From positions 1,792,001 to 1,856,000 of the forward strand of contig CBDHHL010000032.1 of assembly GCA_965263355.1 (NCBI GenBank): 64,000 nt of DNA, written 5' to 3'. The stretch's first letter is position 1; every line of letters begins with the position of its first letter. The position numbers and the translations under genes are program-made. Shown piece by piece: positions 38,738 to 51,384 of this stretch. Under the pieces are notes generated by a model, which was not told the DNA's origin, did not search any database, and saw nothing but the letters and a program-made list of their open reading frames with translations. Source of the DNA: Leptolyngbyaceae cyanobacterium (GTDB taxonomy: Bacteria > Cyanobacteriota > Cyanobacteriia > Phormidesmidales > Phormidesmidaceae).

Positions 38738-38963
38738 GTACTTAAGTCCTCATTAGTGGGTGACTATCTTGCTCAATTGCCAAGGATAAAAACATCCTTG
38801 AAAGCAATAGATTATCAGCGTGGACAGGCAAATACCTCAATGTATCTACTATCCAGATTAGGGCCTGTCTGTCTTTAACAGATTTTCCATAGCAAATACC
38901 CAGTCAGGTGATGTTAGTACGTCATCACAAGTGTTTTTAAAGTTTTTTACGGCAGGAGATTCT

Positions 38964-39842
38964 ATGAACCGATATTTAGGTAAACCCTCTTGGTTGTTGA
39001 TGGCTTCTGTAACATCAGGAGTGCTTGCGATCGCAACACCCAGTCAGGCCGCTAGTTTTGCATTTTCGGAAAGCTTATTAGAAGTTGTTTTTGGCCAAGA
39101 GTTCACGGGTAGCGAAGCAGATACGGATGCCGATACATTTGCCATTGCAGATGACGGTGACGTATCAGTGGACGCATTTGCAGACGCCACTATCTTTAAT
39201 GATGCCTCTGGGTTATCTACATGTCTATTTGGCTTAGGTGCTCCCGGTGCTTGCAATGTCGCTCTCAGCGAAGCAATTGGTGATGATGGCAACAACTATT
39301 TTGGCATCGGTGAGAGCACAGCCGAAGTCATTGGTGACTTCTTTGTAGCATCAGGCAACAACTTTAGTTTTGATTTCATTGCTTCACTACTGCTCGAAAC
39401 CAATATTGACCGTCCTGATGTGGAAAGTGCCCAGGCTACTGGAGAGGTCTCATTTGCAATCTTTGGAAGCAGCCAAGCAGAGTCTCTCTCACTTCTAGAT
39501 ACCTTCACACTAGCAGGACAGCTATCAACATTGAGTGAAGACGATAGCCTGACCGAGCCACAAACCAGTAACACATTCGCATTTAATACATTCATTAATA
39601 CCTCCTTTGGAGGACAAAATGAGTTTGTTGATGCTTTGGCGGAAGGCTCCTATAGCCGTACCTTTGACAGTGACACATACTTACAACTGGTGGAAGTAAA
39701 AACCAGTTCTGCTTGTGTAACGACAACGGATAGTGGCCAAAACTGTAACCAGTCAATTCCAGAACCCACTAGTCTACTAGCTTTAATTGCACCACTCTTA
39801 GGCCTAACTGGCATCTCTTTACAAAAAAGAACAAGTCGATAG
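38964..39842 (+). CDS. PEP-CTERM sorting-domain surface protein
   Basis: Signal peptide (ATPSQA-A), acidic Ser/Thr/Ala-rich body, C-terminal IPEPT + hydrophobic helix + KRTSR; AGGAG RBS. Confidence 0.88.
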   Translation: MNRYLGKPSWLLMASVTSGVLAIATPSQAASFAFSESLLEVVFGQEFTGSEADTDADTFAIADDGDVSVDAFADATIFNDASGLSTCLFGLGAPGACNVALSEAIGDDGNNYFGIGESTAEVIGDFFVASGNNFSFDFIASLLLETNIDRPDVESAQATGEVSFAIFGSSQAESLSLLDTFTLAGQLSTLSEDDSLTEPQTSNTFAFNTFINTSFGGQNEFVDALAEGSYSRTFDSDTYLQLVEVKTSSACVTTTDSGQNCNQSIPEPTSLLALIAPLLGLTGISLQKRTSR

Positions 39843-39932: not shown

Positions 39933-40014
39933 TTTAATATCTTGTGTCAAGAGTAGGGGCTTGTGCCTGATTTTCTGTCGATCCCTTAGCTATCCCAAAT
40001 TCATCCAGAAATCT

Positions 40015-40026
40015 GCCAAAATGGCC
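40015..40026 (+). promoter_or_regulatory. Conserved GCCAAAATGGCC upstream motif (also 40515, 40582, and 43140 on the minus strand)
   Basis: Exact or 1-mismatch copies upstream of both precursor genes and of the foldase gene. Confidence 0.45.
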
Positions 40027-40106
40027 ACCCTCCTCCTAACGAATTGCCTATCTTTATCTCAAGAGCAACAAAAGTTGCTTAAAACACTTTCTAGGAGAGT
40101 TTCAAA

Positions 40107-40322
40107 ATGATTATCAACAATTTAAGCTATCTGGGCGACGTTGCTGACGATACAGCTATCTCTGGTGGTTACTATTACTACCATCCATATAATAGCGCGA
40201 ATGCAAGTGCTTCAGCTGTTGCTCTTGGCTACAATACCAACACCAACACCTATACAAGTGCATCAGTGATTCAAGGCTATCGCTCCTCATCTTATTCCAG
40301 TTCTAACGCCAGTACTAGCTAG
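40107..40322 (+). CDS. Double-glycine-leader secreted peptide precursor 1
   Basis: AGGAG RBS; leader MIINNLSYLGDVADDTAISGG; Tyr/Ser/Ala/Thr/Asn-rich 50-aa core; near a C39 exporter. Confidence 0.88.
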   Translation: MIINNLSYLGDVADDTAISGGYYYYHPYNSANASASAVALGYNTNTNTYTSASVIQGYRSSSYSSSNASTS

Positions 40323-40425
40323 CCCACAGTCATAGGTAACATTAAATTCTTCAAGAATGGCTCAAGAGACCACGTATAAGTGGTCTTTCAGTCATTCTTC
40401 TATCTGAATTTCCTTAGAACATGGC

Positions 40426-40474
40426 CACTGAATTCCCGTTCAAGATCTTTATGATCCTGGACGGGAATTCAGTG
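40426..40474 (+). terminator. Long hairpin / terminator after precursor 1 (second hairpin at 40353..40399)
   Basis: CACTGAATTCCCGT...ACGGGAATTCAGTG followed by TTT. Confidence 0.6.
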
Positions 40475-40674
40475 TTTAAATAGATAATAAAAAATAAAAT
40501 TCATCCAAGAATCTGCCAAAATAGCCACATTTCTCTTAGGAATTGATCAGTCAGCGAAATTCGAAATTCATCCAAGAATCTGCCAAAATGGCCACATTTC
40601 TCCTGATAAATTGCCTATCTTTATTTCAGGAGCAACAAAGAGTTGCTTAAAACACTTTCTAGGAGAGTTTCAAA

Positions 40675-40896
40675 ATGATTATCAACGATTTAAGCTATTT
40701 GGGCGATGCCACTAAAGATGCAGCTATCTCTGGTGGTCGTCGTTATTATTACTATCGTCCACGTAATAGCGCGAATGCAAGTGCTTCAGCCGTTGCTCTT
40801 GGCTACAATACTTACACTAGCACCTATACAAGTGCATCAGTGATTCAAGGCAATGGTTCCTCGTCTTCTTCCGGGTCTTACGCAAATGCTTCCTAA
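40675..40896 (+). CDS. Double-glycine-leader secreted peptide precursor 2 (paralogue of precursor 1)
   Basis: Same RBS context; leader MIINDLSYLGDATKDAAISGG; 52-aa core sharing NSANASASAVALGYNT..TYTSASVIQG. Confidence 0.88.
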   Translation: MIINDLSYLGDATKDAAISGGRRYYYYRPRNSANASASAVALGYNTYTSTYTSASVIQGNGSSSSSGSYANAS

Positions 40897-41070
40897 TCCA
40901 GGGTGTATGCTTGGAATGTAAATCCTCGAGAGTCGCTGAAAGAATGCTAAAAGTGCCCTTTCAGCGATTCTATTCTTACAGCTAAAAGATTTTAAGTGTG
41001 AGAGTAGATAAGTCCTTCTCGAGGAATTTGCACCTTGAGAAGGACTTATAATCCAACAAGGAGAAAAACA

Positions 41071-41331
41071 ATGAGTCAGTTAGTTATATCAGACCTTGAT
41101 CTTTTAGAAGATGTATCAAATCAACTCCACATTCATGGTGGTCATCTTAATGCTGTTTTGAGTGCCACTGTAACTGCCGATCTTGATGCAGGCTTGTATA
41201 CTCAAGGCAATTTAATAATAGGAGGCATAAGCTTCTATTATCATGGAAGCTTGGCTGGGGCAACAGCTGGTGCAGTGGCCTCTGGTGGGCGACGAGTTTC
41301 GGTTTCGGTTTCTGCCACTGCTCAGGCATGA
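41071..41331 (+). CDS. Double-glycine-leader secreted peptide precursor 3
   Basis: AAGGAG RBS before ATG 41071; leader MSQLVISDLDLLEDVSNQLHIHGG; Ala/Gly/Val/Ser-rich core. Confidence 0.82.
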   Translation: MSQLVISDLDLLEDVSNQLHIHGGHLNAVLSATVTADLDAGLYTQGNLIIGGISFYYHGSLAGATAGAVASGGRRVSVSVSATAQA

Positions 41332-41435: not shown

Positions 41436-41771
41436 CTAAGTTCTCCATCTAAGGGATGGTGATTTTGTTTTGTGGAACCATTTTTTCCGGCCTCCACTTA
41501 TGTTTGTTCGAGACGTATCAACTGTCTTTAAGTATTTAAGATCAGAGATTTTCCCAGAGATTTGACAACTATTAGAGTATTGCTTAATAGTAGAGGATTC
41601 TTTCAACAAACTCTCTTGGTGACGGTTTGCTTTCATCAAACGATGATAAGTTCGATAGGGCATATATTGAAGAGGGTTGTGGCCTTCACCACAGAGAAAT
41701 AAAATACAAGCCCAAGAATATTTGCCATCAAGAATTGCCTCAATGACTTCATCAAAGTATGCCTTATTCAT
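41436..41771 (-). CDS. hetP: HetP-family protein 1
   Basis: Signature VIEAILDGKYSWACILFL..GHNPLQYMPYRTYHRLMK; GGAG RBS. Confidence 0.88.
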   Translation of the reverse strand: MNKAYFDEVIEAILDGKYSWACILFLCGEGHNPLQYMPYRTYHRLMKANRHQESLLKESSTIKQYSNSCQISGKISDLKYLKTVDTSRTNISGGRKKWFHKTKSPSLRWRT

Positions 41772-41809
41772 TCGTTGTCTCCAGTGTGTGAGTAGTAAGT
41801 TTTAAGGGG

Positions 41810-42016
41810 CTATTCCACTACATTAGAATGGCTACTGACATGACTGCTAGAATAGCTATGGGTTTGATTTGGAAAGGTTTCAACCTCGACGCTTTGTTGG
41901 TATGTTGTATAACTCTCAGCTTGGTCATCAGAGATAATGACAACGCTGCTTGCTTCGGCAATAACCTGACCATTTTTAGTAATGACGCGTTTTTTAACAA
42001 CTTTTTTCTGTGTCAT
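41810..42016 (-). CDS. Small Ser/Val-rich hypothetical protein
   Basis: AGGAG RBS; co-oriented between the foldase and hetP; VITKNGQVIAEASSV...SYSSSHVSS. Confidence 0.7.
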   Translation of the reverse strand: MTQKKVVKKRVITKNGQVIAEASSVVIISDDQAESYTTYQQSVEVETFPNQTHSYSSSHVSSHSNVVE

Positions 42017-42159
42017 TGGTTTATTTCTCCTAATTGGTTGCTGTCTCTGTTTTGTACTATAAATTAGCTTGAAATCAATGCTGATTTACTAAACCTTATT
42101 CACGTCTAGAATAGAAGTCTTCCCCTCAAGGAAGCTATAGGGTGAACCTTGAGCACAGC

Positions 42160-42924
42160 TTAAACTGTCGTTTTCAATATACTTGAATCCAATTCGCTAT
42201 AAAGCAGATGGTTGATCTCTCGTTCTAACCACTCGTCAAATAAATCTTGGATGATTTCTTGTCGAACTTCATTGGTTAGTTGGGCTGGGATAAACGCTTC
42301 AACCATAAACAGATGGTAACTAGACTCTATTGCAAGGGGTCCAATAATTGTCCCTAAGGAAGCACCAAAGATGGCAGCTGCAACCTGGGGTTGCAGGTCC
42401 CAACGAGATAGCTTACCTTCATAACCGCACCGTAATCGACGCTCTGGGTCAGTATCATATCTATGGGCAGCTGCATAAAATGTGATCTCTTTTTCTAAAA
42501 TTTGATAGCAGATCTCTTGCACAACGTGGGGATCGTCAACCTGCAGCTGATAGAGTAAAACCTGATCAAATTGAAGTTTATTTTGTGAGAAATATTTTTC
42601 GACTTCCGAGTCAAATAATACATTTGCTAGCTTTTTCTCTAACAATTTTGAATATATACCCGCTTCCCAGTCGTCAACAGACATTAATTGATCTGCTAGC
42701 CAGACAAACGTATCCGCTGCTTTTTCTAGCTGATATTCGCGACGAAACTGCTCAGCTTCAGCTTGAATTTCTAGAGGTCCGATGGTTAGGTTTTGATTAC
42801 GAGCACTATTCTGAATAACGCGTTGACTCAACAATTTTTGATAGATATTTCTCAGTTGGATTGTTTGTCTAAAATAACTAACAATCTCTTCCGAAGTAAA
42901 GTTGACCTTTGAAAAATCTGCCAT
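42160..42924 (-). CDS. PpiC/parvulin-type peptidyl-prolyl isomerase (foldase) associated with a type I exporter
   Basis: Helical chaperone N-domain, then 'FYAAAHRYDTDPERRLRCGYEG...AAIFGA..IIGPL..YHLFMVE' rotamase-like domain. Confidence 0.82.
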   Translation of the reverse strand: MADFSKVNFTSEEIVSYFRQTIQLRNIYQKLLSQRVIQNSARNQNLTIGPLEIQAEAEQFRREYQLEKAADTFVWLADQLMSVDDWEAGIYSKLLEKKLANVLFDSEVEKYFSQNKLQFDQVLLYQLQVDDPHVVQEICYQILEKEITFYAAAHRYDTDPERRLRCGYEGKLSRWDLQPQVAAAIFGASLGTIIGPLAIESSYHLFMVEAFIPAQLTNEVRQEIIQDLFDEWLEREINHLLYSELDSSILKTTV

Positions 42925-43186
42925 ATTTCAGAGTCTTTTAGGTAAATAACTCTTATGTATATCCAAAATCGTAACATGCCTGTAAAAGCAGCAATCGGCT
43001 TCAACAAGATTCAGGCAATTCAATGGGAAATTCCTAGAAAAGGTTACACATTCATATCAATAATCCAGAGTCAATGTGCAGCATATACAAACAAATAGTT
43101 CGTATTTCTGAAGAATAGCTTGAGCCCAACAAGAAATCAGGCCATTTTGGCCTAATGTATATTTTGTAACAAAAATCCTAAAAAAA

Positions 43187-43228
43187 TGATACTCAAACAG
43201 GTTGCAAAGAACAGCTGTTTGAGTATCA
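43187..43228 (-). terminator. Intrinsic terminator after hetP-2
   Basis: TGATACTCAAACAG...CTGTTTGAGTATCA with an A-run on the left (U-tail on the minus strand). Confidence 0.7.
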
Positions 43229-43271
43229 AAGCTAAAGCATTAGAAAAGATATAACCTGTTCTTGGAGCGGC

Positions 43272-43604
43272 TCACCGCGATTTGATACCTAAGCGGGGTA
43301 TACAAAATCTTGAACGAATTCGTCTGGGCTGAAATCCACCTTGTACAGAACGACTACTATGGTGACTGCTTTCTAAGTGTGATAAGTCTACAATTTTTGG
43401 TCTATGTCTATGGTTTTGGCTCTTCAAAGTAGTATTGTCGCCCCGCTTATATCCTGTCTGTTGTTGTCTAAGTAAGCGATTATAAGTACGACACGGGATG
43501 TATTCTTTGGGGTTATATCCTTTTTCACGTAGCCATAATACACAAGCCCATGAGTATTTACCCTCTAAAATGGCTGTCATCACATCATCTGACTGCTTAT
43601 CCAT
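43272..43604 (-). CDS. hetP: HetP-family protein 2
   Basis: AILEGKYSWACVLWL..GYNPKEYIPCRTYNRLL signature. Confidence 0.88.
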   Translation of the reverse strand: MDKQSDDVMTAILEGKYSWACVLWLREKGYNPKEYIPCRTYNRLLRQQQTGYKRGDNTTLKSQNHRHRPKIVDLSHLESSHHSSRSVQGGFQPRRIRSRFCIPRLGIKSR

Positions 43605-43760: not shown

Positions 43761-45140
43761 TTATAAGTTAAGTCCTCCTTTTTGTAACTGCTTAAAGGGA
43801 TCAATCAAGATATCGATGATTCGACGTTGACGAATACTAATATCAACGGTAGCCGTCTGTCCCGGTTTAAATTGTTTGATTCCTTTTTCTGTTTCCAATC
43901 GGTTTGTTGAGAGGGCAATTTCTAGTTCATAAACATCCCCCAAGATGTCATCTTTGACGGTACCAGGGGCAACCTTCTCTACACTCCCGTCAATAACGCC
44001 ATAGTCTTGAAATGGATAGGCATCAAATTTAATCCGGGCAGCCATCCCTTGTTGTATAAACCCAGCATCTCGGTTAGCAAGCTTGGCAGATAACACTAAT
44101 GGGGCTCCCTCAGGCGCTATTTCAGCAATAGCCTGTCCCGCCTGTACAACTTCATCGGGATTGGCAATATTAAGGGCAAGGACCACACCATCAACAGGGG
44201 CCATTAGGGTGCTATGGGCTAATTTGGTGCGAGCCCCTTGCAGTTGAGTCTCAGTTTCAAAAATGTTAGCTTTGAGCTGGGTTATTTCCACCTTTAGCTG
44301 TTGCAGGCGTTGTTGGATTTCTAATATATGGCGTTGCCCTTCCGCTTGTTTTTGTGTTTGTTCTGCACCTAAACGCCTGATTTCTGAAAGCTGCTCTCGC
44401 AAATTGCCCTGTTGTTGAGTCATGGTTTGCTGGCGTACTAGCAGAGATTGCTCTGCGTCAAAAAAATATTCTTTGGAAATTGCACCATTTTCCTTTAATG
44501 AATTTAATCGTTGAATGCGGTCTTTATGGGCTACAATTTCTGCCTGAATTTGCGCTATTAACGCTTGTGTAGTATCTACATTGGATTTAACCCGTTCAAT
44601 GGCTGCAGTGTGGGCCAGGGTATCGGCCTGGACGCCTGCCTGACGAGTCTGCATTTCTATATGGGTTTGTTCGACTAATGCTTGAGTTTGACTAAGTTTC
44701 TTTTGGGCCGCCTTTAATACTTGTTCTAATCGCTCAATTTCATTCTGATCAAGTCGATCATCTAGTTGAAGCATCACTTGTCCAGCTTTAACCAAATCCC
44801 CTTCTTTGATAAAAATATCTGATACCTTGCCCTGTTGAATAGGCATAACTTTGTAAGCTTCACCTTGGGGAACAAGCTTGCCGCGGGCAGAGCTGACTTC
44901 TTCGACTTTGCCGACATAGGCCCAGATTCCAAATGCAAGGCAAAAGCCTATGCCGCCTGCAAGTAGACGATAGGGGAGTTGTGCAGGGGGGCGATCTAAG
45001 GTTGATTGTACAGCTAGGGACCAGGTGGCAGCTGTGGCCTGGTCAGGTGATGATATCGATTTATGGGGAAAATCGGGGGCATTCGAGAAATTTGTCATAG
45101 GGATACGCTCTGAAGATAGGGGCTTTGAAAATGGAGGCAC
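43761..45140 (-). CDS. hlyD: HlyD-family membrane fusion protein (alternative start 45098)
   Basis: TM segment, ARGKLVP, lipoyl-like halves, coiled coil, APVDG, FDAYPFQDYG, PGQTAT. Confidence 0.93.
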   Translation of the reverse strand: MPPFSKPLSSERIPMTNFSNAPDFPHKSISSPDQATAATWSLAVQSTLDRPPAQLPYRLLAGGIGFCLAFGIWAYVGKVEEVSSARGKLVPQGEAYKVMPIQQGKVSDIFIKEGDLVKAGQVMLQLDDRLDQNEIERLEQVLKAAQKKLSQTQALVEQTHIEMQTRQAGVQADTLAHTAAIERVKSNVDTTQALIAQIQAEIVAHKDRIQRLNSLKENGAISKEYFFDAEQSLLVRQQTMTQQQGNLREQLSEIRRLGAEQTQKQAEGQRHILEIQQRLQQLKVEITQLKANIFETETQLQGARTKLAHSTLMAPVDGVVLALNIANPDEVVQAGQAIAEIAPEGAPLVLSAKLANRDAGFIQQGMAARIKFDAYPFQDYGVIDGSVEKVAPGTVKDDILGDVYELEIALSTNRLETEKGIKQFKPGQTATVDISIRQRRIIDILIDPFKQLQKGGLNL

Positions 45141-45222: not shown

Positions 45223-48200
45223 TTAGCCCATGAGCTGTTGTTGGGCTAAATAGTAGTAAAGCCCTTGTTCTGCAATCAACTGATCGTGGTTGCCCTGCTC
45301 CACTAAAATGCCTTGGTCCAGGACAAGAATGCGATCCACCTGGCGTACCGTTGATAACCGATGAGCAATGATAAATGTAGTATGGTTACGACTCAGCTGG
45401 GCCAGGTTATGTTGAAATCGACGTTCTGATTCAGTGTCCAGAGAGCTGGTTGCTTCGTCTAAAATCAGTACCCGAGGCTTTCCGAGCAGTGCCCGCGCAA
45501 TGGCAATCCGCTGTCGTTGCCCGCCTGAGAGGGTAGCTCCTCGCTCTCCTACCTTGGTGTTGTAACCCAGGGGTAAGGCTTGGATAAAGGTATGGGCTTC
45601 GGCTAGCTTAGCAACCTCAACAACATCATCAATTGTATAGTTGGGCCGATATAATGTAATGTTGTCCAGAATCGTTCCAGAAAATAGAAAACAGTCTTGG
45701 GGAACCACACCTAGTTGCGATCGCAACGAATGGGGAGCAATATGTCGAATATCATGACCATCAATCAAAATACGCCCGCTACTTGGTTGGTATAACCCCT
45801 GTAGTAAACTAATGAGTGTTGTTTTCCCTGAGCCACTGCGTCCTACGATAGCAACGGTTTCTCCAATGGGCACCTCAAATGATACATTTTGCAGGATATT
45901 CCGCTCTTCATCTTCTGCATAACGAAAGGTAACATTGTCGAGCCTAATCTGCCCCTGAATGGAGGGAAGTTGCAGCATAGTTTCCTGGGCCGCTTCCTCA
46001 GGCTTGGCAGAAAAAATATCATTGAGGCGTTCTACAGAGATTGTTATCTCCTGAAACTCGTCCCATAAACCAACGAGTGCTAAAACAGGTCCAATTACAC
46101 TGCCAATCAGCATGTTAAATGCAAAAAATTGCCCAATAGTCAGCTGATCCTGGATAACGAGATAGGCCCCATACCAAATTAAAGCAGTACTGCCCAGGGA
46201 ATGAATAACGCCACTGGATGCCTGCAGGGCATTCGCTAATTTTTGACCATGAAATCGGGCATTGAGCAGTTCAATCAAGTCATTTTCCCAACGCCATCGA
46301 GTTTCTTGTTCAACAGCAACTGTTTTGATCGTACCAATACCCGCCATGATTTCGACTAAAGTAGAATTTTCCTTCGCATCGGCATTAAAAATCCTGCGAG
46401 AGACTCGTCGTAGTAGAGGCGTGGCTCCAACGGCTAGCAACGCAATTAACGGGATAAAGACCAATACTACTAAAGTTAAATGCCAGTTGTAATAGGCCAT
46501 TAGCCCAATATAAACAACCATCATCAAGACATCTAGCCATACAATTATCAACTGTCGCGTAAGAAATAACTGAATTTTCTGTCCTTCCTCAACTCGGGTT
46601 GTAATATCACCCACATGGCGAAAGTCAAAAAACTTTAAGGGTAACCTCAACGTATGTTGTACAAACCCACTGAGTAATGAGAGGTCTAAACGATTGGAAA
46701 AGTAATCCAATAAATATTGGCGCACGGCGGTTAACCCAATTTTCCATAGGCCAAATAATAATAGACCCATGGCAAATACATTTAAGGTAACAACGCTGCG
46801 CTGTACCACTACCCGGTCCAGAATAACCTGTGTAAACAAGGGGGTGACTAATCCAAAAATCTGAATAAGTAGGGATGCCAGGATGATTTGAACAATCAGA
46901 TTGCGGTAAGGCCATAATAACCTCAATAGATTGCCCAGAGACTGTTGATTCTCAGTGGATAATGATTGTAATCGTGCAGTTGGTTCCAACAGCAGGGCAT
47001 ATCCAGTCCAACCAGCCAAAAAGTCTTGACGCTGGAGCCATTTACGTCCCTTTGCCGGATCCGCAACCAAAATACTTCTATGATGAATCTGGTAGACCAC
47101 AATATAGTGATTACCTTGCCAGTGAGCCACAAAGGGACCTTGTATTTGAGATAGGCGATCCAAACTAGCACGGACTGGTTGAGCATCAAATCCAACCTTT
47201 TCGGCAGCCCTCACCAGTCCCTTCAGGGATGTTCCCTCACGACTGGTACCTGCGAGTTCTCGTAGCACGTTTAACCCTATTTGTTTGCCCCAATATTGGG
47301 CCACCATGGCTAAACAAGCGACCCCGCAATCTGCCGTACTTTGCTGTTCAATAAAGGGAAACCCATGCCACGGTCGCCGACCTCGATATCGAGGCTGAGG
47401 AAACTCAACCACCGTTTTTTTAGCTAATTCCAATCCAGAAGCACTTGAGTCCAATGGAGTCAGTGATTGATGCGGCTGTCCAACCCTATTGTTAAGCTGA
47501 CTAATATTGGTCGTGTCCGCCTTGAATCCACGCTCCTCTGAACTACTCTTCTTCAGACCATTTGAAACTAGTTTGGAGTCCGAGGCGTGTAAAAATGGAA
47601 AGCGTGTCCACTGGTGCTGAGGTAGACTGTAAACCAACAAGGTTTCTTGAGCCACCCAGTCGTTTGAAACTGGTTGAGGATAGCCCCAATCATCACCTGG
47701 CAGTAATAATTTATGGCCACCGTGGGAGAGTTGAATACGGCCTTCTTTGAGCCAAAAATGACTGGTACTTCCTAACTCAGCTAACCGCTGTTGAGGCTCC
47801 AGCTGTTGTTGCTGACAAGCCGTGGCAAAGGATTCTAGCTCGTAACTACTCAACTCTTGCAGAGAAGTCATAGTTTTAAAGAAAATCAGCTTTTCACGAT
47901 GCTGAGCTTGAGTTTGTAAATATGTTTTCAGATCTGATAGCTGGTCAATCCAACGTTGAAGCACAGTTAACGGCATATATGCGGCCTCAACATTGCCAGC
48001 CGCTACAACCCGATAGGGCATGGCATGATTGCCCAGAATAGGTTCTGCCCCAAAGGTATCACCGCTCTCCAGGGATTGCACAGGGGTCTCCCCCATCTCC
48101 CCAGATTTAGCAATAATTCGGGCACGACCACAACATATTATGTAGAAACCTTTACGTTCTCTGTGATAGACCGATTGTCGAGACTCTCCCCCATATATAA

Positions 48201-48327
48201 ATAGTTCATCTCCCATCCTGTACTTACAACTTTGAAAGGCTCGATTGAAATCAGCAGAAATCCCTGGTTTTATATCTACATCAATGAGTGCAGAGATATC
48301 AAAAGGTACAGTAGAAAAGTAATTCAT
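45223..48327 (-). CDS. Peptidase-containing ABC exporter: cNMP-binding-like domains + C39 peptidase + TMD + ATPase (HetC/PteB-like)
   Basis: C39 QQSTADCGVACL, HYIVV, ADPA with Cys/His/Asp intact; GRSGSGKTT, LSGGQRQR, ILDEATS; N-terminal 'GFYIICCGRARI...GDTFG' cNMP-like fold. Confidence 0.93.
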   Translation of the reverse strand: MNYFSTVPFDISALIDVDIKPGISADFNRAFQSCKYRMGDELFIYGGESRQSVYHRERKGFYIICCGRARIIAKSGEMGETPVQSLESGDTFGAEPILGNHAMPYRVVAAGNVEAAYMPLTVLQRWIDQLSDLKTYLQTQAQHREKLIFFKTMTSLQELSSYELESFATACQQQQLEPQQRLAELGSTSHFWLKEGRIQLSHGGHKLLLPGDDWGYPQPVSNDWVAQETLLVYSLPQHQWTRFPFLHASDSKLVSNGLKKSSSEERGFKADTTNISQLNNRVGQPHQSLTPLDSSASGLELAKKTVVEFPQPRYRGRRPWHGFPFIEQQSTADCGVACLAMVAQYWGKQIGLNVLRELAGTSREGTSLKGLVRAAEKVGFDAQPVRASLDRLSQIQGPFVAHWQGNHYIVVYQIHHRSILVADPAKGRKWLQRQDFLAGWTGYALLLEPTARLQSLSTENQQSLGNLLRLLWPYRNLIVQIILASLLIQIFGLVTPLFTQVILDRVVVQRSVVTLNVFAMGLLLFGLWKIGLTAVRQYLLDYFSNRLDLSLLSGFVQHTLRLPLKFFDFRHVGDITTRVEEGQKIQLFLTRQLIIVWLDVLMMVVYIGLMAYYNWHLTLVVLVFIPLIALLAVGATPLLRRVSRRIFNADAKENSTLVEIMAGIGTIKTVAVEQETRWRWENDLIELLNARFHGQKLANALQASSGVIHSLGSTALIWYGAYLVIQDQLTIGQFFAFNMLIGSVIGPVLALVGLWDEFQEITISVERLNDIFSAKPEEAAQETMLQLPSIQGQIRLDNVTFRYAEDEERNILQNVSFEVPIGETVAIVGRSGSGKTTLISLLQGLYQPSSGRILIDGHDIRHIAPHSLRSQLGVVPQDCFLFSGTILDNITLYRPNYTIDDVVEVAKLAEAHTFIQALPLGYNTKVGERGATLSGGQRQRIAIARALLGKPRVLILDEATSSLDTESERRFQHNLAQLSRNHTTFIIAHRLSTVRQVDRILVLDQGILVEQGNHDQLIAEQGLYYYLAQQQLMG

Positions 48328-49543: not shown

Positions 49544-50152
49544 AGCAATTCCAAATTCCAACTTAAGAACAGAAATCAGTATCCTGGAGCTAGCAATCGA
49601 GTCGTGCAAAGCGTAACCCTATCGGGTACAGTCAACTCATTCGGATGGGTCTTGCCTTGGGCAAGATAGTCGTTATGGCTTCAAGTGTGCTCAGTTTCGA
49701 CAGTTTGCTAGGAGGACTGACCTCGTGCATAGGAACGATGAAGGATGGGCGTCAGCCCAGTAACGCAACTCGTTATAGCCTTCAAGATGCAGTGCTGGGA
49801 GCGTTTAGTGCGTTTTTCATGCAAAGCCCGTCATTCCTCAGCAGTTCCAAATTCCAATTTACAGACATCTGAAACCCTTGATTTTCCGTTGGAATTGAGT
49901 TCACTCAGGTTTAGGGGGAGGGGCATAGTCAAGCGAAGGAGTTGGCTAGCTACTCCTCTATTTCGAAGATTGAGTCACAGGAATTAACTGATGGAAAGAA
50001 AACGACCATACCCTCAAACCTTTATAAATCAGGAGCTTTGCCTGGACTAGATATGCCTCTGAAAGTCTTCTAAAGTCTTTTTTAGCAAGGGTTTCACCCT
50101 TCTTGGGGCAGGCCAGCGCAGGCTGTCCTAAAGTTGGAATTTGGAATTGCTG
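49543..50152. mobile_element. Defective IS / nested MITE bounded by perfect 22-bp terminal inverted repeats
   Basis: CAGCAATTCCAAATTCCAACTT (49543) and its reverse complement (50131..50152); a third, 2-mismatch left end at 49839. Confidence 0.82.
49675..49838 (+). pseudogene. N-terminal transposase fragment (ISNCY/IS4-like)
   Basis: MASSVLSFDSLL...DGRQPSNATRYSLQDAVLGAFSAFFMQSPSFL, broken at the internal inverted-repeat copy. Confidence 0.75.
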
Positions 50153-50153
50153 A

Positions 50154-50312
50154 CGACAACTTTACCGAGATATTGAAGACGGACTTCTCAGAATCGGAAT
50201 AGAAGTCGAAGACCGGAGACGACCAGGCACGAAAAAGGCACGGTATTACATCAACATTCCTGCCACGAGAAAACGACTTAATTGCGCACCTGAGAAACGG
50301 AAGGTGGTTTAG
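50154..50312 (+). pseudogene. 5'-truncated excisionase / recombination directionality factor-like gene
   Basis: RQLYRDIEDGLLRIGIEVEDRRRPGTKKARYYINIPATRKRLNCAPEKRKVV*: basic, winged-helix-like, convergent with and overlapping the integrase 3' end; starts at the IS right end. Confidence 0.6.
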
Positions 50313-51384
50313 GGCCGCCTGCAATCGCACTGTGATAGACCGCCTGCTGTTCAGCGGCAGATAGCCATCGCTGATAGGTCTCAGTATGGACCTTAACCGA
50401 GTGCCCCATCATACGAGCTGCAATACTGACTGGGATATTAAACTTGATGCACCGAACCGCAAAAGCATGACGAAGGTCATACGCTAGAAACGGCACCTTA
50501 TAGGTTCTGAACTTTTTAGATAATATCTTTCCGTATTTTCTAAACTCTGGATATTTAAGCGGTGGCGGATTGCCCTCCCCTATCCTCCACTTTGCAACCC
50601 ACTCTGGATAGAGCGCAGAAACTTGGCGATACCCCGTTTTTCCATCAGTAACGTTCCAGATAAGCGGGTCAGGCGTTGGTTCTAAAAAGAACGCTTCATG
50701 AGGACGAACCCCAAAGGTTGAGATCGCAGCATAGACCCACTGCCATGCAGGGTCAGGAAATATATTCCACCACTCCTCTATCAGTTCATCAGCAGGTAAA
50801 TCCCTTCTTGCTTCAGAGCGTCCTGGCGCATAGCTTCCACCATGAGGACGTAAATCAATCTGAATCTCAGCAAACTCAGCAAGTCGCTGAAAGTACCGCA
50901 TAGTGCGCTTTCTGGTATAGGTACCAACATCAGTCTCAAGGAGTATGTTCAGCAGTATATCTCCAGTAAGCGGCTTATCCTGTGGCAGGCGTTTGTATGC
51001 TGCTCCCCAATGCTGATGCCAGGTATCTTCTGTGGTAATGCCCTTTGATAACCAGTGCTCACGAAACTCAGCTATCCATTCTTTTACGGTTCTGTCCTCA
51101 CGAGATACTTTTCCTCGCCAGGTATCCCACTCAAAGCTTCCATCAATCACACTTCCCCAAAGTGAGATCGCAACTTTCTCAGCATCTTTTAATCCACGAG
51201 TCGTTGCAGGAAGTCCAACCTTAGGTCGCGTTACTTCCTGACGGTACGCCTTTACTTTGTCAGATTCAGGTTTTGGAGGAAGCACAGCTCTTAAATACAA
51301 CCATTGCTTTCGCTGAAGAATGGTGACTCTAATTCCGGAGTCACGTAACCGGCTATTTACTCCTGAAAGGTCTACTTGTTCCAT
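50278..51384 (-). CDS. Tyrosine recombinase/integrase (cyanobacterial XisA/XisC-like family)
   Basis: FGVRPHE (R), DGKTG (K), YDLRHAFA, MGHS (H), HTETY (Y); N-terminal 'LYLRAVLPPKP' arm-binding region. Confidence 0.9.
   Translation of the reverse strand: MEQVDLSGVNSRLRDSGIRVTILQRKQWLYLRAVLPPKPESDKVKAYRQEVTRPKVGLPATTRGLKDAEKVAISLWGSVIDGSFEWDTWRGKVSREDRTVKEWIAEFREHWLSKGITTEDTWHQHWGAAYKRLPQDKPLTGDILLNILLETDVGTYTRKRTMRYFQRLAEFAEIQIDLRPHGGSYAPGRSEARRDLPADELIEEWWNIFPDPAWQWVYAAISTFGVRPHEAFFLEPTPDPLIWNVTDGKTGYRQVSALYPEWVAKWRIGEGNPPPLKYPEFRKYGKILSKKFRTYKVPFLAYDLRHAFAVRCIKFNIPVSIAARMMGHSVKVHTETYQRWLSAAEQQAVYHSAIAGGPKPPSVSQVRN

Follow-up and report, generated by a model that had tools for sequence, protein, structure and literature searches.

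Internal double-glycine leaders in HetP proteins follow the fate of the neighbouring HetC-type C39 exporter

Why should a protein of the HetP family carry, behind its conserved domain, the same double-glycine leader as the small precursor peptides encoded beside it? The question is raised by a locus in a 64,000-nucleotide stretch of DNA from a Leptolyngbyaceae cyanobacterium (assembly GCA_965263355.1, contig CBDHHL010000032.1, positions 1,792,001 to 1,856,000), which is referred to here as the window and in whose own numbering all coordinates are given. Two hetP genes lie there next to a gene for a HetC-type exporter that bears a C39 peptidase domain and three genes for stand-alone precursors. 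The leader motif, its match to the precursor leaders, the complete catalytic triad of the exporter, the conserved arrangement of the genes, and the way leader and tail decay once a lineage has lost a working HetC are all direct observations. Judging from these sequences, it is moderately likely that both HetP proteins are cut after the double glycine (GG) by the neighbouring exporter, in which case the tail would go out and the HetP domain would stay inside. The features on which this reading turns are the following.

41436..41771, minus strand: hetP1, 111 residues, with the HetP domain at residues 1-49, a linker, an internal double-glycine leader and a 17-residue tail (NF037966, 82.9 bits).
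41490..41549, minus strand: internal leader of HetP1, ISDLKYLKTVDTSRTNISGG, ending at Gly93-Gly94, after which the cut is predicted (translation; leader profile, 19.8 bits).
41436..41489, minus strand: tail of HetP1, 17 residues plus stop codon, containing Trp, net charge +7.
43272..43604, minus strand: hetP2, 110 residues, directly downstream of hlyD, with the HetP domain, a linker, an internal leader and a 20-residue tail (NF037966, 78.2 bits).
43335..43394, minus strand: internal leader of HetP2, IVDLSHLESSHHSSRSVQGG, ending at Gly89-Gly90 (translation; leader profile, 6.0 bits, partial).
40107..40322, plus strand: stand-alone precursor 1, 71 residues, with an N-terminal leader and a core rich in Ser/Thr/Ala/Tyr.
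40675..40896, plus strand: stand-alone precursor 2, 73 residues, a tandem paralogue of precursor 1.
41071..41331, plus strand: stand-alone precursor 3, 86 residues from the ATG at 41071, with a divergent leader.
45223..48327, minus strand: HetC-type exporter with cNMP, C39 peptidase, ABC membrane and ATPase domains (Pfam; catalytic residues).

The original prediction held that both HetPs share a leader with the three precursors and that this motif, lying after the HetP domain, is conserved even though the surrounding linkers are unrelated. Both statements are borne out by the coordinates and translations, the HetP form of the motif being I-x-D-L-x-[YH]-L-x9-[IV]-x-GG, with two corrections: the HetP spacer is 9 residues long, against 8 for the precursors, and in the HetP2 leader H replaces Y and V replaces I. 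Both proteins lie well within the family (NF037966 HetP_family cut-off, 45 bits), and in both the leader ends in G-[GAS] with a hydrophobic residue at position -4, as in exported precursors. A pattern drawn post hoc from the five sites matched them and nothing else when all six frames of the window were scanned, and gave 1 match in 200 shuffled six-frame sets. The scan with a hidden Markov model of precursor leaders that had been proposed as a check was made with 41 stand-alone leaders from other genomes; it scored HetP1 at 19.8 bits and HetP2, as a partial match only, at 6.0 bits, the best of 2780 control shuffles reaching 4.7 bits, and precursor 3 stayed below 12 bits. Linker length varies among 16 close relatives, all of which share the D, L and GG residues. 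The distance from I to GG is 20 residues in 92 of 103 representatives, stand-alone precursors being looser (19 residues in 57 of 99). A structure prediction of the C39 domain in complex with HetP1 residues 66-108 scored 0.02, 0.52 and 0.02 in its runs against a mark of 0.32, with controls not folded, and carries no weight for or against binding.

The motif itself, whose novelty the original prediction had left to be checked, has been in print since 2011. Wang, Fewer and Sivonen described KIxDLxYLEx10GG in HetP, Anabaena alr2818 included, and credited it to an M16 peptidase (PMC3140520); it was repeated by Micallef in 2015 (PMC4558948). Both window HetPs fit that consensus at x10 spacing, apart from a single exchange in each (E to K; Y to H). 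The portions of the two papers available to us contain no comparison to stand-alone precursor leaders and no test of HetC, and our search, mostly of open-access literature, found no paper showing HetC cleavage of HetP or arguing for it from the motif. What appears to be new here is the comparative evidence tying the leader to a HetC-type peptidase.

That evidence comes from Nostocales. A leader-core pattern gathered 125 distinct orthologues, of which 4 with too little upstream DNA (L043, L052, L066 and L193) were dropped; the pattern misses some with a more decayed core or another flank (for example L047, L181, L186, L212 and L215). A family-level search supplied 80 regions, 60 of them out of the bottom half of its ranking and 20 out of the top half, which over-represents decayed sites. 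HetC was called intact when a long open reading frame (ORF) with the catalytic Cys, His and Asp lay just upstream, and four near-intact or split copies accompanied by GG were scored as not intact, a choice that works against the reading we favour. Strict GG was found in 51 of the 60 orthologues with an intact HetC and in 14 of the 61 without it, and the looser G-[GAS] in 53 of 60 and 29 of 61, respectively, counts in which the tips are not independent. On a tree built from the approximately 300 bases of hetP DNA that precede the motif, HetC was lost 14 times; of the losses of strict GG, 10 fall on HetC-less branches (exposure 2.33) and 3 on HetC branches (exposure 7.1; binomial p 1e-4).

Comparison of change rates along the same tree localizes the effect. 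The ratio of HetC-less to HetC branches was 0.90 for the HetP domain and 1.10 for the linker, both partly circular because the tree was built on them, 4.2 for the core motif, 2.2 for the spacer, 3.3 for the two residues before GG, 20 for GG, and 0.94 and 0.89 for the tail residues, which serve as a free control (gaps counted as missing). With the largest clade of 23 tips masked, the corresponding values were 0.74, 1.18, 4.3, 1.9, 2.8, 20, and 0.98 and 0.88. The speed-up is specific to the leader and its GG, and the HetP domain and tail residues are without it. Where HetC is present, GG changed only twice over 7.2 branch units and the flanking linker and tail underwent about 2 changes per site; a GG this static between such flanks indicates selection and not a relic. 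Several clades contain HetC-less members with GG next to others that lack it, a pattern suggesting that hetC was lost first.

The tail behind the GG shows a dependence of another kind. It had been described as short and cationic and proposed as a small cationic signal peptide. Both window tails are cationic; across the 103 representatives, however, tails run from 1 to 88 residues (median 19), with a net charge of at least +3 in 24 and of 0 or less in 45, so this is not a conserved cationic peptide and the proposal is not supported in the form given. Trp occurs in 76 of 103 tails versus 3 of 103 linkers. When 72 tails were compared with the other frames of the same DNA, Trp (3.3% versus 1.4%) and Asp/Glu were enriched and Phe was not; a description of the tails as aromatic-rich was cut back since only Trp and Asp/Glu exceed the other reading frames. 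Among the Nostocales orthologues, tails of at least 25 residues accompany 54 of 60 intact HetCs (median 36) and occur in 16 of 61 cases without one (median 7), and 13 truncations fell on HetC-less branches versus 3 with HetC (p 3e-5). The tail therefore matters only together with HetC, though its residues change as fast as those of the linker, and this leaves room for a role of the tail as a signal. Removal of the tail under selection after HetC loss was considered and not adopted, as the truncation rate, roughly estimated, fits neutral decay. The ends of the L077 and alr2818 tails read like a second copy of the leader core without GG (L-S-D-[LI]-D-[FL]-[IL]).

Is it the HetC peptidase in particular that GG follows? 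In a tree of 83 exporters, made by a quick method and lacking Anabaena PCC 7120 HetC itself, the exporters upstream of hetP, including that of the window and the Nostocales genes in hetC position, are separated from a second clade by a branch 0.8 long. The window exporter is sister to that of Leptothoe sp. PORK10 BA2, and the tree is tied to Anabaena HetC by gene position and by near-identical HetP sequences (L077 versus alr2818). GG decays even where an intact second-clade exporter is nearby (L009, L017, L081 and L088). It is kept in 11 of 11 loci that have HetC and no gene for the peptidyl-prolyl isomerase (PPIase) of the cassette within 2.3 kb; thus GG tracks HetC and not the PPIase. In four lineages (L184, L190, L202 and L231) HetC persists, full-length or split, with Ser at the position of the catalytic Cys and further changes in the active site; all four HetP tails there are cut to 4 residues, and strict GG is missing in 3 of the 4, so catalysis seems to matter. 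The main exception, six sites reading G-R beside an intact triad, forms one clade (L071, L176, L182, L185, L188 and L189) with three changes in the HetC peptidase. One of them alters the Gly, conserved elsewhere, that stands two residues ahead of the catalytic His, as happens in all four Cys-to-Ser copies; this clade could have shifted specificity or be in early decay. Taken together, these observations speak for cutting by HetC more than for a relic or for docking alone.

Three other accounts have to be weighed against cutting by HetC for the sake of the HetP domain. One accepts the cut and takes the tail as the working product, a secreted or periplasmic signal, with the HetP domain as an extended leader or independent passenger. 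It is compatible with the favoured reading and, as the account of the system, seems unlikely. The tail lengths and truncations just described fit it, as do the enrichment in Trp and Asp/Glu, the essential ATPase activity of HetC (PMC10986499) and an hlyD gene immediately upstream of hetP in every one of the 29 non-Nostocales-type cassettes. Against it, tail residues change about as fast as the linker (approximately 2 changes per site per unit branch), lengths and charges range from 1 to 88 residues and from acidic to basic, and a model in which only the tail is exported has no explanation for the rescue of a peptidase-less HetC by hetP-sfGFP (PMC4133259). Alternatively, the leader might stay uncut and do no more than dock HetP on the PPIase-like chaperone or on the exporter, where it would be a decoy, a gate or a polar anchor. 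The strong conservation of the core, its decay upon HetC loss, the gathering of HetC-GFP and HetP-GFP near heterocyst poles (PMC4133259) and the mostly joint loss of PPIase and hetC would all be expected of docking. We nevertheless judge docking alone to be quite improbable: GG is the most HetC-dependent position and the spacing to it is fixed, GG is gone beside a full-length Cys-to-Ser HetC in 3 of 4 cases, tail length is HetC-dependent as well, and HetP-GFP is polar even when the peptidase domain is missing (PMC4133259). Of the three options raised originally, cleavage-coupled control fits best, and a pure uncleaved decoy fits less well because GG decays fastest and three of the four Cys-to-Ser lineages have lost it in strict form.

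The last account, to which we give very little credence, is that the motif is a relic left when a HetP domain was fused to a precursor gene, or that some other peptidase cuts it, such as the M16 enzyme named in 2011, so that its link to HetC is the joint decay of an old cluster. In its favour, 29 of 51 HetP-domain proteins have no motif, the independent-pairs test does not reach p 0.05, and many genomes gave no HetC-like match: when whole genomes were searched, all 7 controls had one, as had 7 of 60 Nostocaceae genomes chosen for having no working hetC beside hetP (four of these being the local Cys-to-Ser copies and three lying elsewhere; one divergent local copy was overlooked), and the remaining 53 of 60 show none at E<=1e-60, all of them keeping hetP. 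The near-constancy of GG under HetC is not what a relic would show, and in Nostocales HlyD and the precursors have decayed (0 of 31 and 2 of 31 loci) whereas the leader has not. As to M16, no such domain was found among the 37 window ORFs of at least 150 residues.

A number of observations also weigh against the favoured reading itself. In Anabaena, HetP-GFP is cytoplasmic and polar, alike with and without the HetC peptidase domain (PMC4133259), and as full-length HetP-GFP works without that peptidase, cutting is not strictly needed for activity. The independent-pairs test is suggestive only: of 11 pairs, on average 4.8 agree with this reading and 0.2 run counter to it, and the median p is 0.0625 when strict GG is scored and 0.22 for G-[GAS]. 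The hetP tree stands on some 300 bases, there is partial circularity in the ratios for linker and domain, and the sampling was enriched for low-scoring hetP. Nine orthologues with an intact HetC have no strict GG (six G-R, two G-A and one truncated), and the 14 that keep it without HetC are the converse. About a dozen HetC-less lineages retain a long tail, which implies that the tail is not strongly inhibitory. Where hetC was lost, the PPIase gene has mostly gone as well (55 of 60), so the PPIase, too, might be what the core motif serves. Finally, all co-decay data are from Nostocales and extend to the window via synteny and the exporter tree.

With these points in mind, cutting of HetP by HetC can be laid out as a sequence of steps. 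The exporter would bind the internal leader of HetP, its C39 peptidase would cut after GG, the short tail would likely be moved across the membrane, and the HetP domain, linker and leader would remain in the cell. In the predicted structure of HetP1, three helices span residues 3-61 and the remainder is of low confidence; fold searches gave no Foldseek match at E<=0.001 (best Z 4.4), and the claim that the HetP domain binds DNA is thus taken from the literature on Anabaena. An N-terminal piece of HetP is reportedly sufficient for function. In 2026, HetP was described as a nonspecific DNA-binding protein required for the chromatin immunoprecipitation peaks of sigma-HetZ (PMC13342950). Cutting might further raise or redirect HetP activity, a suggestion prompted by the findings in Anabaena that loss of the peptidase blocks differentiation and that more HetP bypasses it: there, 3-4-fold more hetP-sfGFP fully offsets removal of the peptidase domain from HetC, contiguous heterocysts becoming more frequent, and restores diazotrophic growth without it (Corrales-Guerrero 2014, PMC4133259). 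If so, transcription might be coupled to the state of a nucleotide-gated exporter. In the window, HetP1 and HetP2 would share their peptidase with the three Ser/Thr/Ala-rich precursors and could report on their export; by analogy with the EbfG proteins, these low-complexity precursors may be matrix or surface peptides. A mechanistic HetC-HetP link of the kind originally suggested appears likely, as the embedded leader is real, under selection, and follows the fate of the HetC-type C39 exporter.

How widely the leader is distributed was judged from an unbiased sample, for which 101 genomes of the phylum were sampled; 22 of them had NF037966 matches, and all 51 of these matches were taken with 20 kb of surrounding DNA. 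A single HetP per genome is of the leader type in all 22: in 16 its G-[GAS] is intact, in 6 the core is there without GG, and the remaining 29 of the 51 proteins are leaderless paralogues. Conservation of the motif across HetP homologues therefore holds for the core in 22 of 51 and for intact G-[GAS] in 16 of 51, and not for the family as a whole. A count of 110 motifs among 163 representatives was set aside as a measure of family frequency, since the motif was already part of the profile used to find them. A HetC-type exporter lies within the 20-kb locus of 14 of the 16 proteins with intact G-[GAS] (one a fragment, one split), of 0 of the 6 with core and no GG, and of 1 of the 29 without the motif. 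An order-level sample contains misfits of both kinds, namely leader-bearing HetPs with no exporter in view (L144 and L163) and degenerate or leaderless HetPs adjoining an intact one (for example L155, L159 and L161). Three proteins (P0016, P0093 and P0134) have two or three tandem HetP domains and no leader.

Cassettes were compared at loci where HetP bears a leader, the exporter is full and the downstream sequence extends for at least 6 kb. Alongside the universal HlyD, the 29 non-Nostocales-type cassettes have stand-alone precursors in 24 cases, the PPIase in 26 and a PEP-CTERM-like relative in 13. Having lost HlyD and the precursors, the Nostocales cassette leaves hetP as nearly always the sole leader-bearing gene found beside hetC within the DNA examined. 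Stand-alone precursors with a HetP-type leader are widespread (for example at L010, L033, L049, L059, L069 and L075, and at 40107..41331 in the window). Their 99 distinct cores consist to 46% of S/T/A/G with almost no Cys or Trp, and no Pfam or NCBIfam model for the family was found in the library copies searched. The window cassette is completed by the genes below.

38931..39842, plus strand: PEP-CTERM-like surface protein, a recurrent cassette companion (weak NF041538 match, below cut-off).
41810..42016, minus strand: leaderless Ser/Val-rich ORF, 68 residues, just upstream of hetP1.
42160..42924, minus strand: PPIase/SurA-like protein with a rotamase domain (PF00639, PF13145; TIGR04500 below cut-off).
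43761..45140, minus strand: HlyD membrane-fusion protein (TIGR01843 above cut-off).

The C39 triad of the window exporter is complete (Cys334, His407 and Asp423), and the closest solved relatives are PCAT1, the peptidase domain of 6mpz, and ComA. Close relatives of HetP1 retain a W-x-x-W-like tail start with variable tail length, and the syntenic HetP2 paralogue of Leptothoe sp. PORK10 BA2 (L001) keeps the leader and has a different tail. Precursor 1 gave no Pfam or NCBIfam match; the ESM Atlas look-alikes of precursor 2 are unnamed cyanobacterial clusters (0.93-0.94). No library match linked the stand-alone precursors to cyanobacterial tandem bacteriocins, for which a single Atlas row at 0.85 is a lead only. 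The regions upstream of precursors 1 and 2 (39977..40109 and 40545..40677) are near-identical across about 100 bases, so the tandem duplication takes in the ribosome-binding site and probably the promoter; a promoter scan was at chance level (19 sites versus 21.5). The ORF at 41810..42016 has relatives in 8 other cassette loci and resembles the precursor cores in make-up. Upstream of the exporter, 49645..51384 holds what we take to be a transposase-like remnant (49645..49987) and a 368-residue ORF with presumed tyrosine-recombinase-like motifs and no Pfam match. The GC content of the cassette (38-46%) is below that of its flanks (45-51%). The lineage of the window, close to Leptothoe, is presumably non-heterocystous.

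For Anabaena PCC 7120 the stakes are clear. Both the peptidase and the ATPase of HetC are needed for heterocyst formation; the substrate was left unidentified in 2024, when finding it was called the next crucial step, and the same paper found no gene with a double-glycine leader near hetC and listed HetP-derived peptides as one possibility only (Rachedi 2024, PMC10986499). Cutting of HetP by HetC would answer that question with a gene adjoining hetC, namely hetP, whose leader was noted in 2011 and apparently left unconnected to HetC in the literature searched. It would mean that the peptidase of an ABC exporter controls a transcription regulator, and would explain why extra HetP bypasses loss of the HetC peptidase. 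The comparative data name a testable bond, after Gly119 in alr2818 and after Gly94 and Gly90 in the window, and reagents exist. A fuller proposal, which we put forward as possible though doubtful, is that HetP is the missing physiological substrate of HetC, a DNA-binding regulator processed at its internal leader by the C39 peptidase of a peptide-export cassette; that the piece before GG, ordinarily the part thrown away, is the active transcription factor and the tail a signal delivered outside the cytoplasm; and that heterocyst commitment took over this switch, HlyD and the remaining precursors being discarded in the process, with many Nostocales later dropping HetC, whereupon leader and tail decayed.

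Among the closest known systems is that of HetC (alr2817) and HetP (alr2818) of Anabaena/Nostoc PCC 7120, where a cNMP-C39-ABC exporter likewise lies upstream of hetP, the catalytic Cys and His are 73 residues apart as in the window (C347/H420 and C334/H407, respectively), and HetP has the same leader, ending at Gly119. Unlike that locus, the window, from a Leptothoe-like lineage, retains HlyD and three stand-alone precursors. In motif and family its HetPs are like the HetP-type putative bacteriocin precursors of 2011 (PMC3140520; PMC4558948), and its long-type C39 exporter with nucleotide-binding domain, HlyD and SurA/rotamase protein resemble the group I/II clusters defined there; unlike group II clusters, it shows no M16 domain in its ORFs of at least 150 residues, and in contrast to that account, in which HetP is a bacteriocin precursor, it holds two leader-bearing HetPs. 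EbfG1-4 and PteB of Synechococcus elongatus (PMC4997328; bioRxiv 10.1101/2022.07.13.498973) also pair small GG-leader proteins with a C39 transporter. Their likeness to the window precursors is one of composition only, the EbfG type was listed by Wang as group III, and HetP goes unmentioned in the available part of the EbfG amyloid paper (bioRxiv 10.1101/2022.07.13.498973). No Pfam or NCBIfam match to NHLP or Nif11 (N11P) precursors was found in the five window proteins or 8 related precursors. Those families nonetheless offer a parallel in architecture, with a folded domain before the GG and a cut far from the N-terminus; the N-terminal part of HetP differs in being itself a regulator with its own function and with leaderless paralogues.

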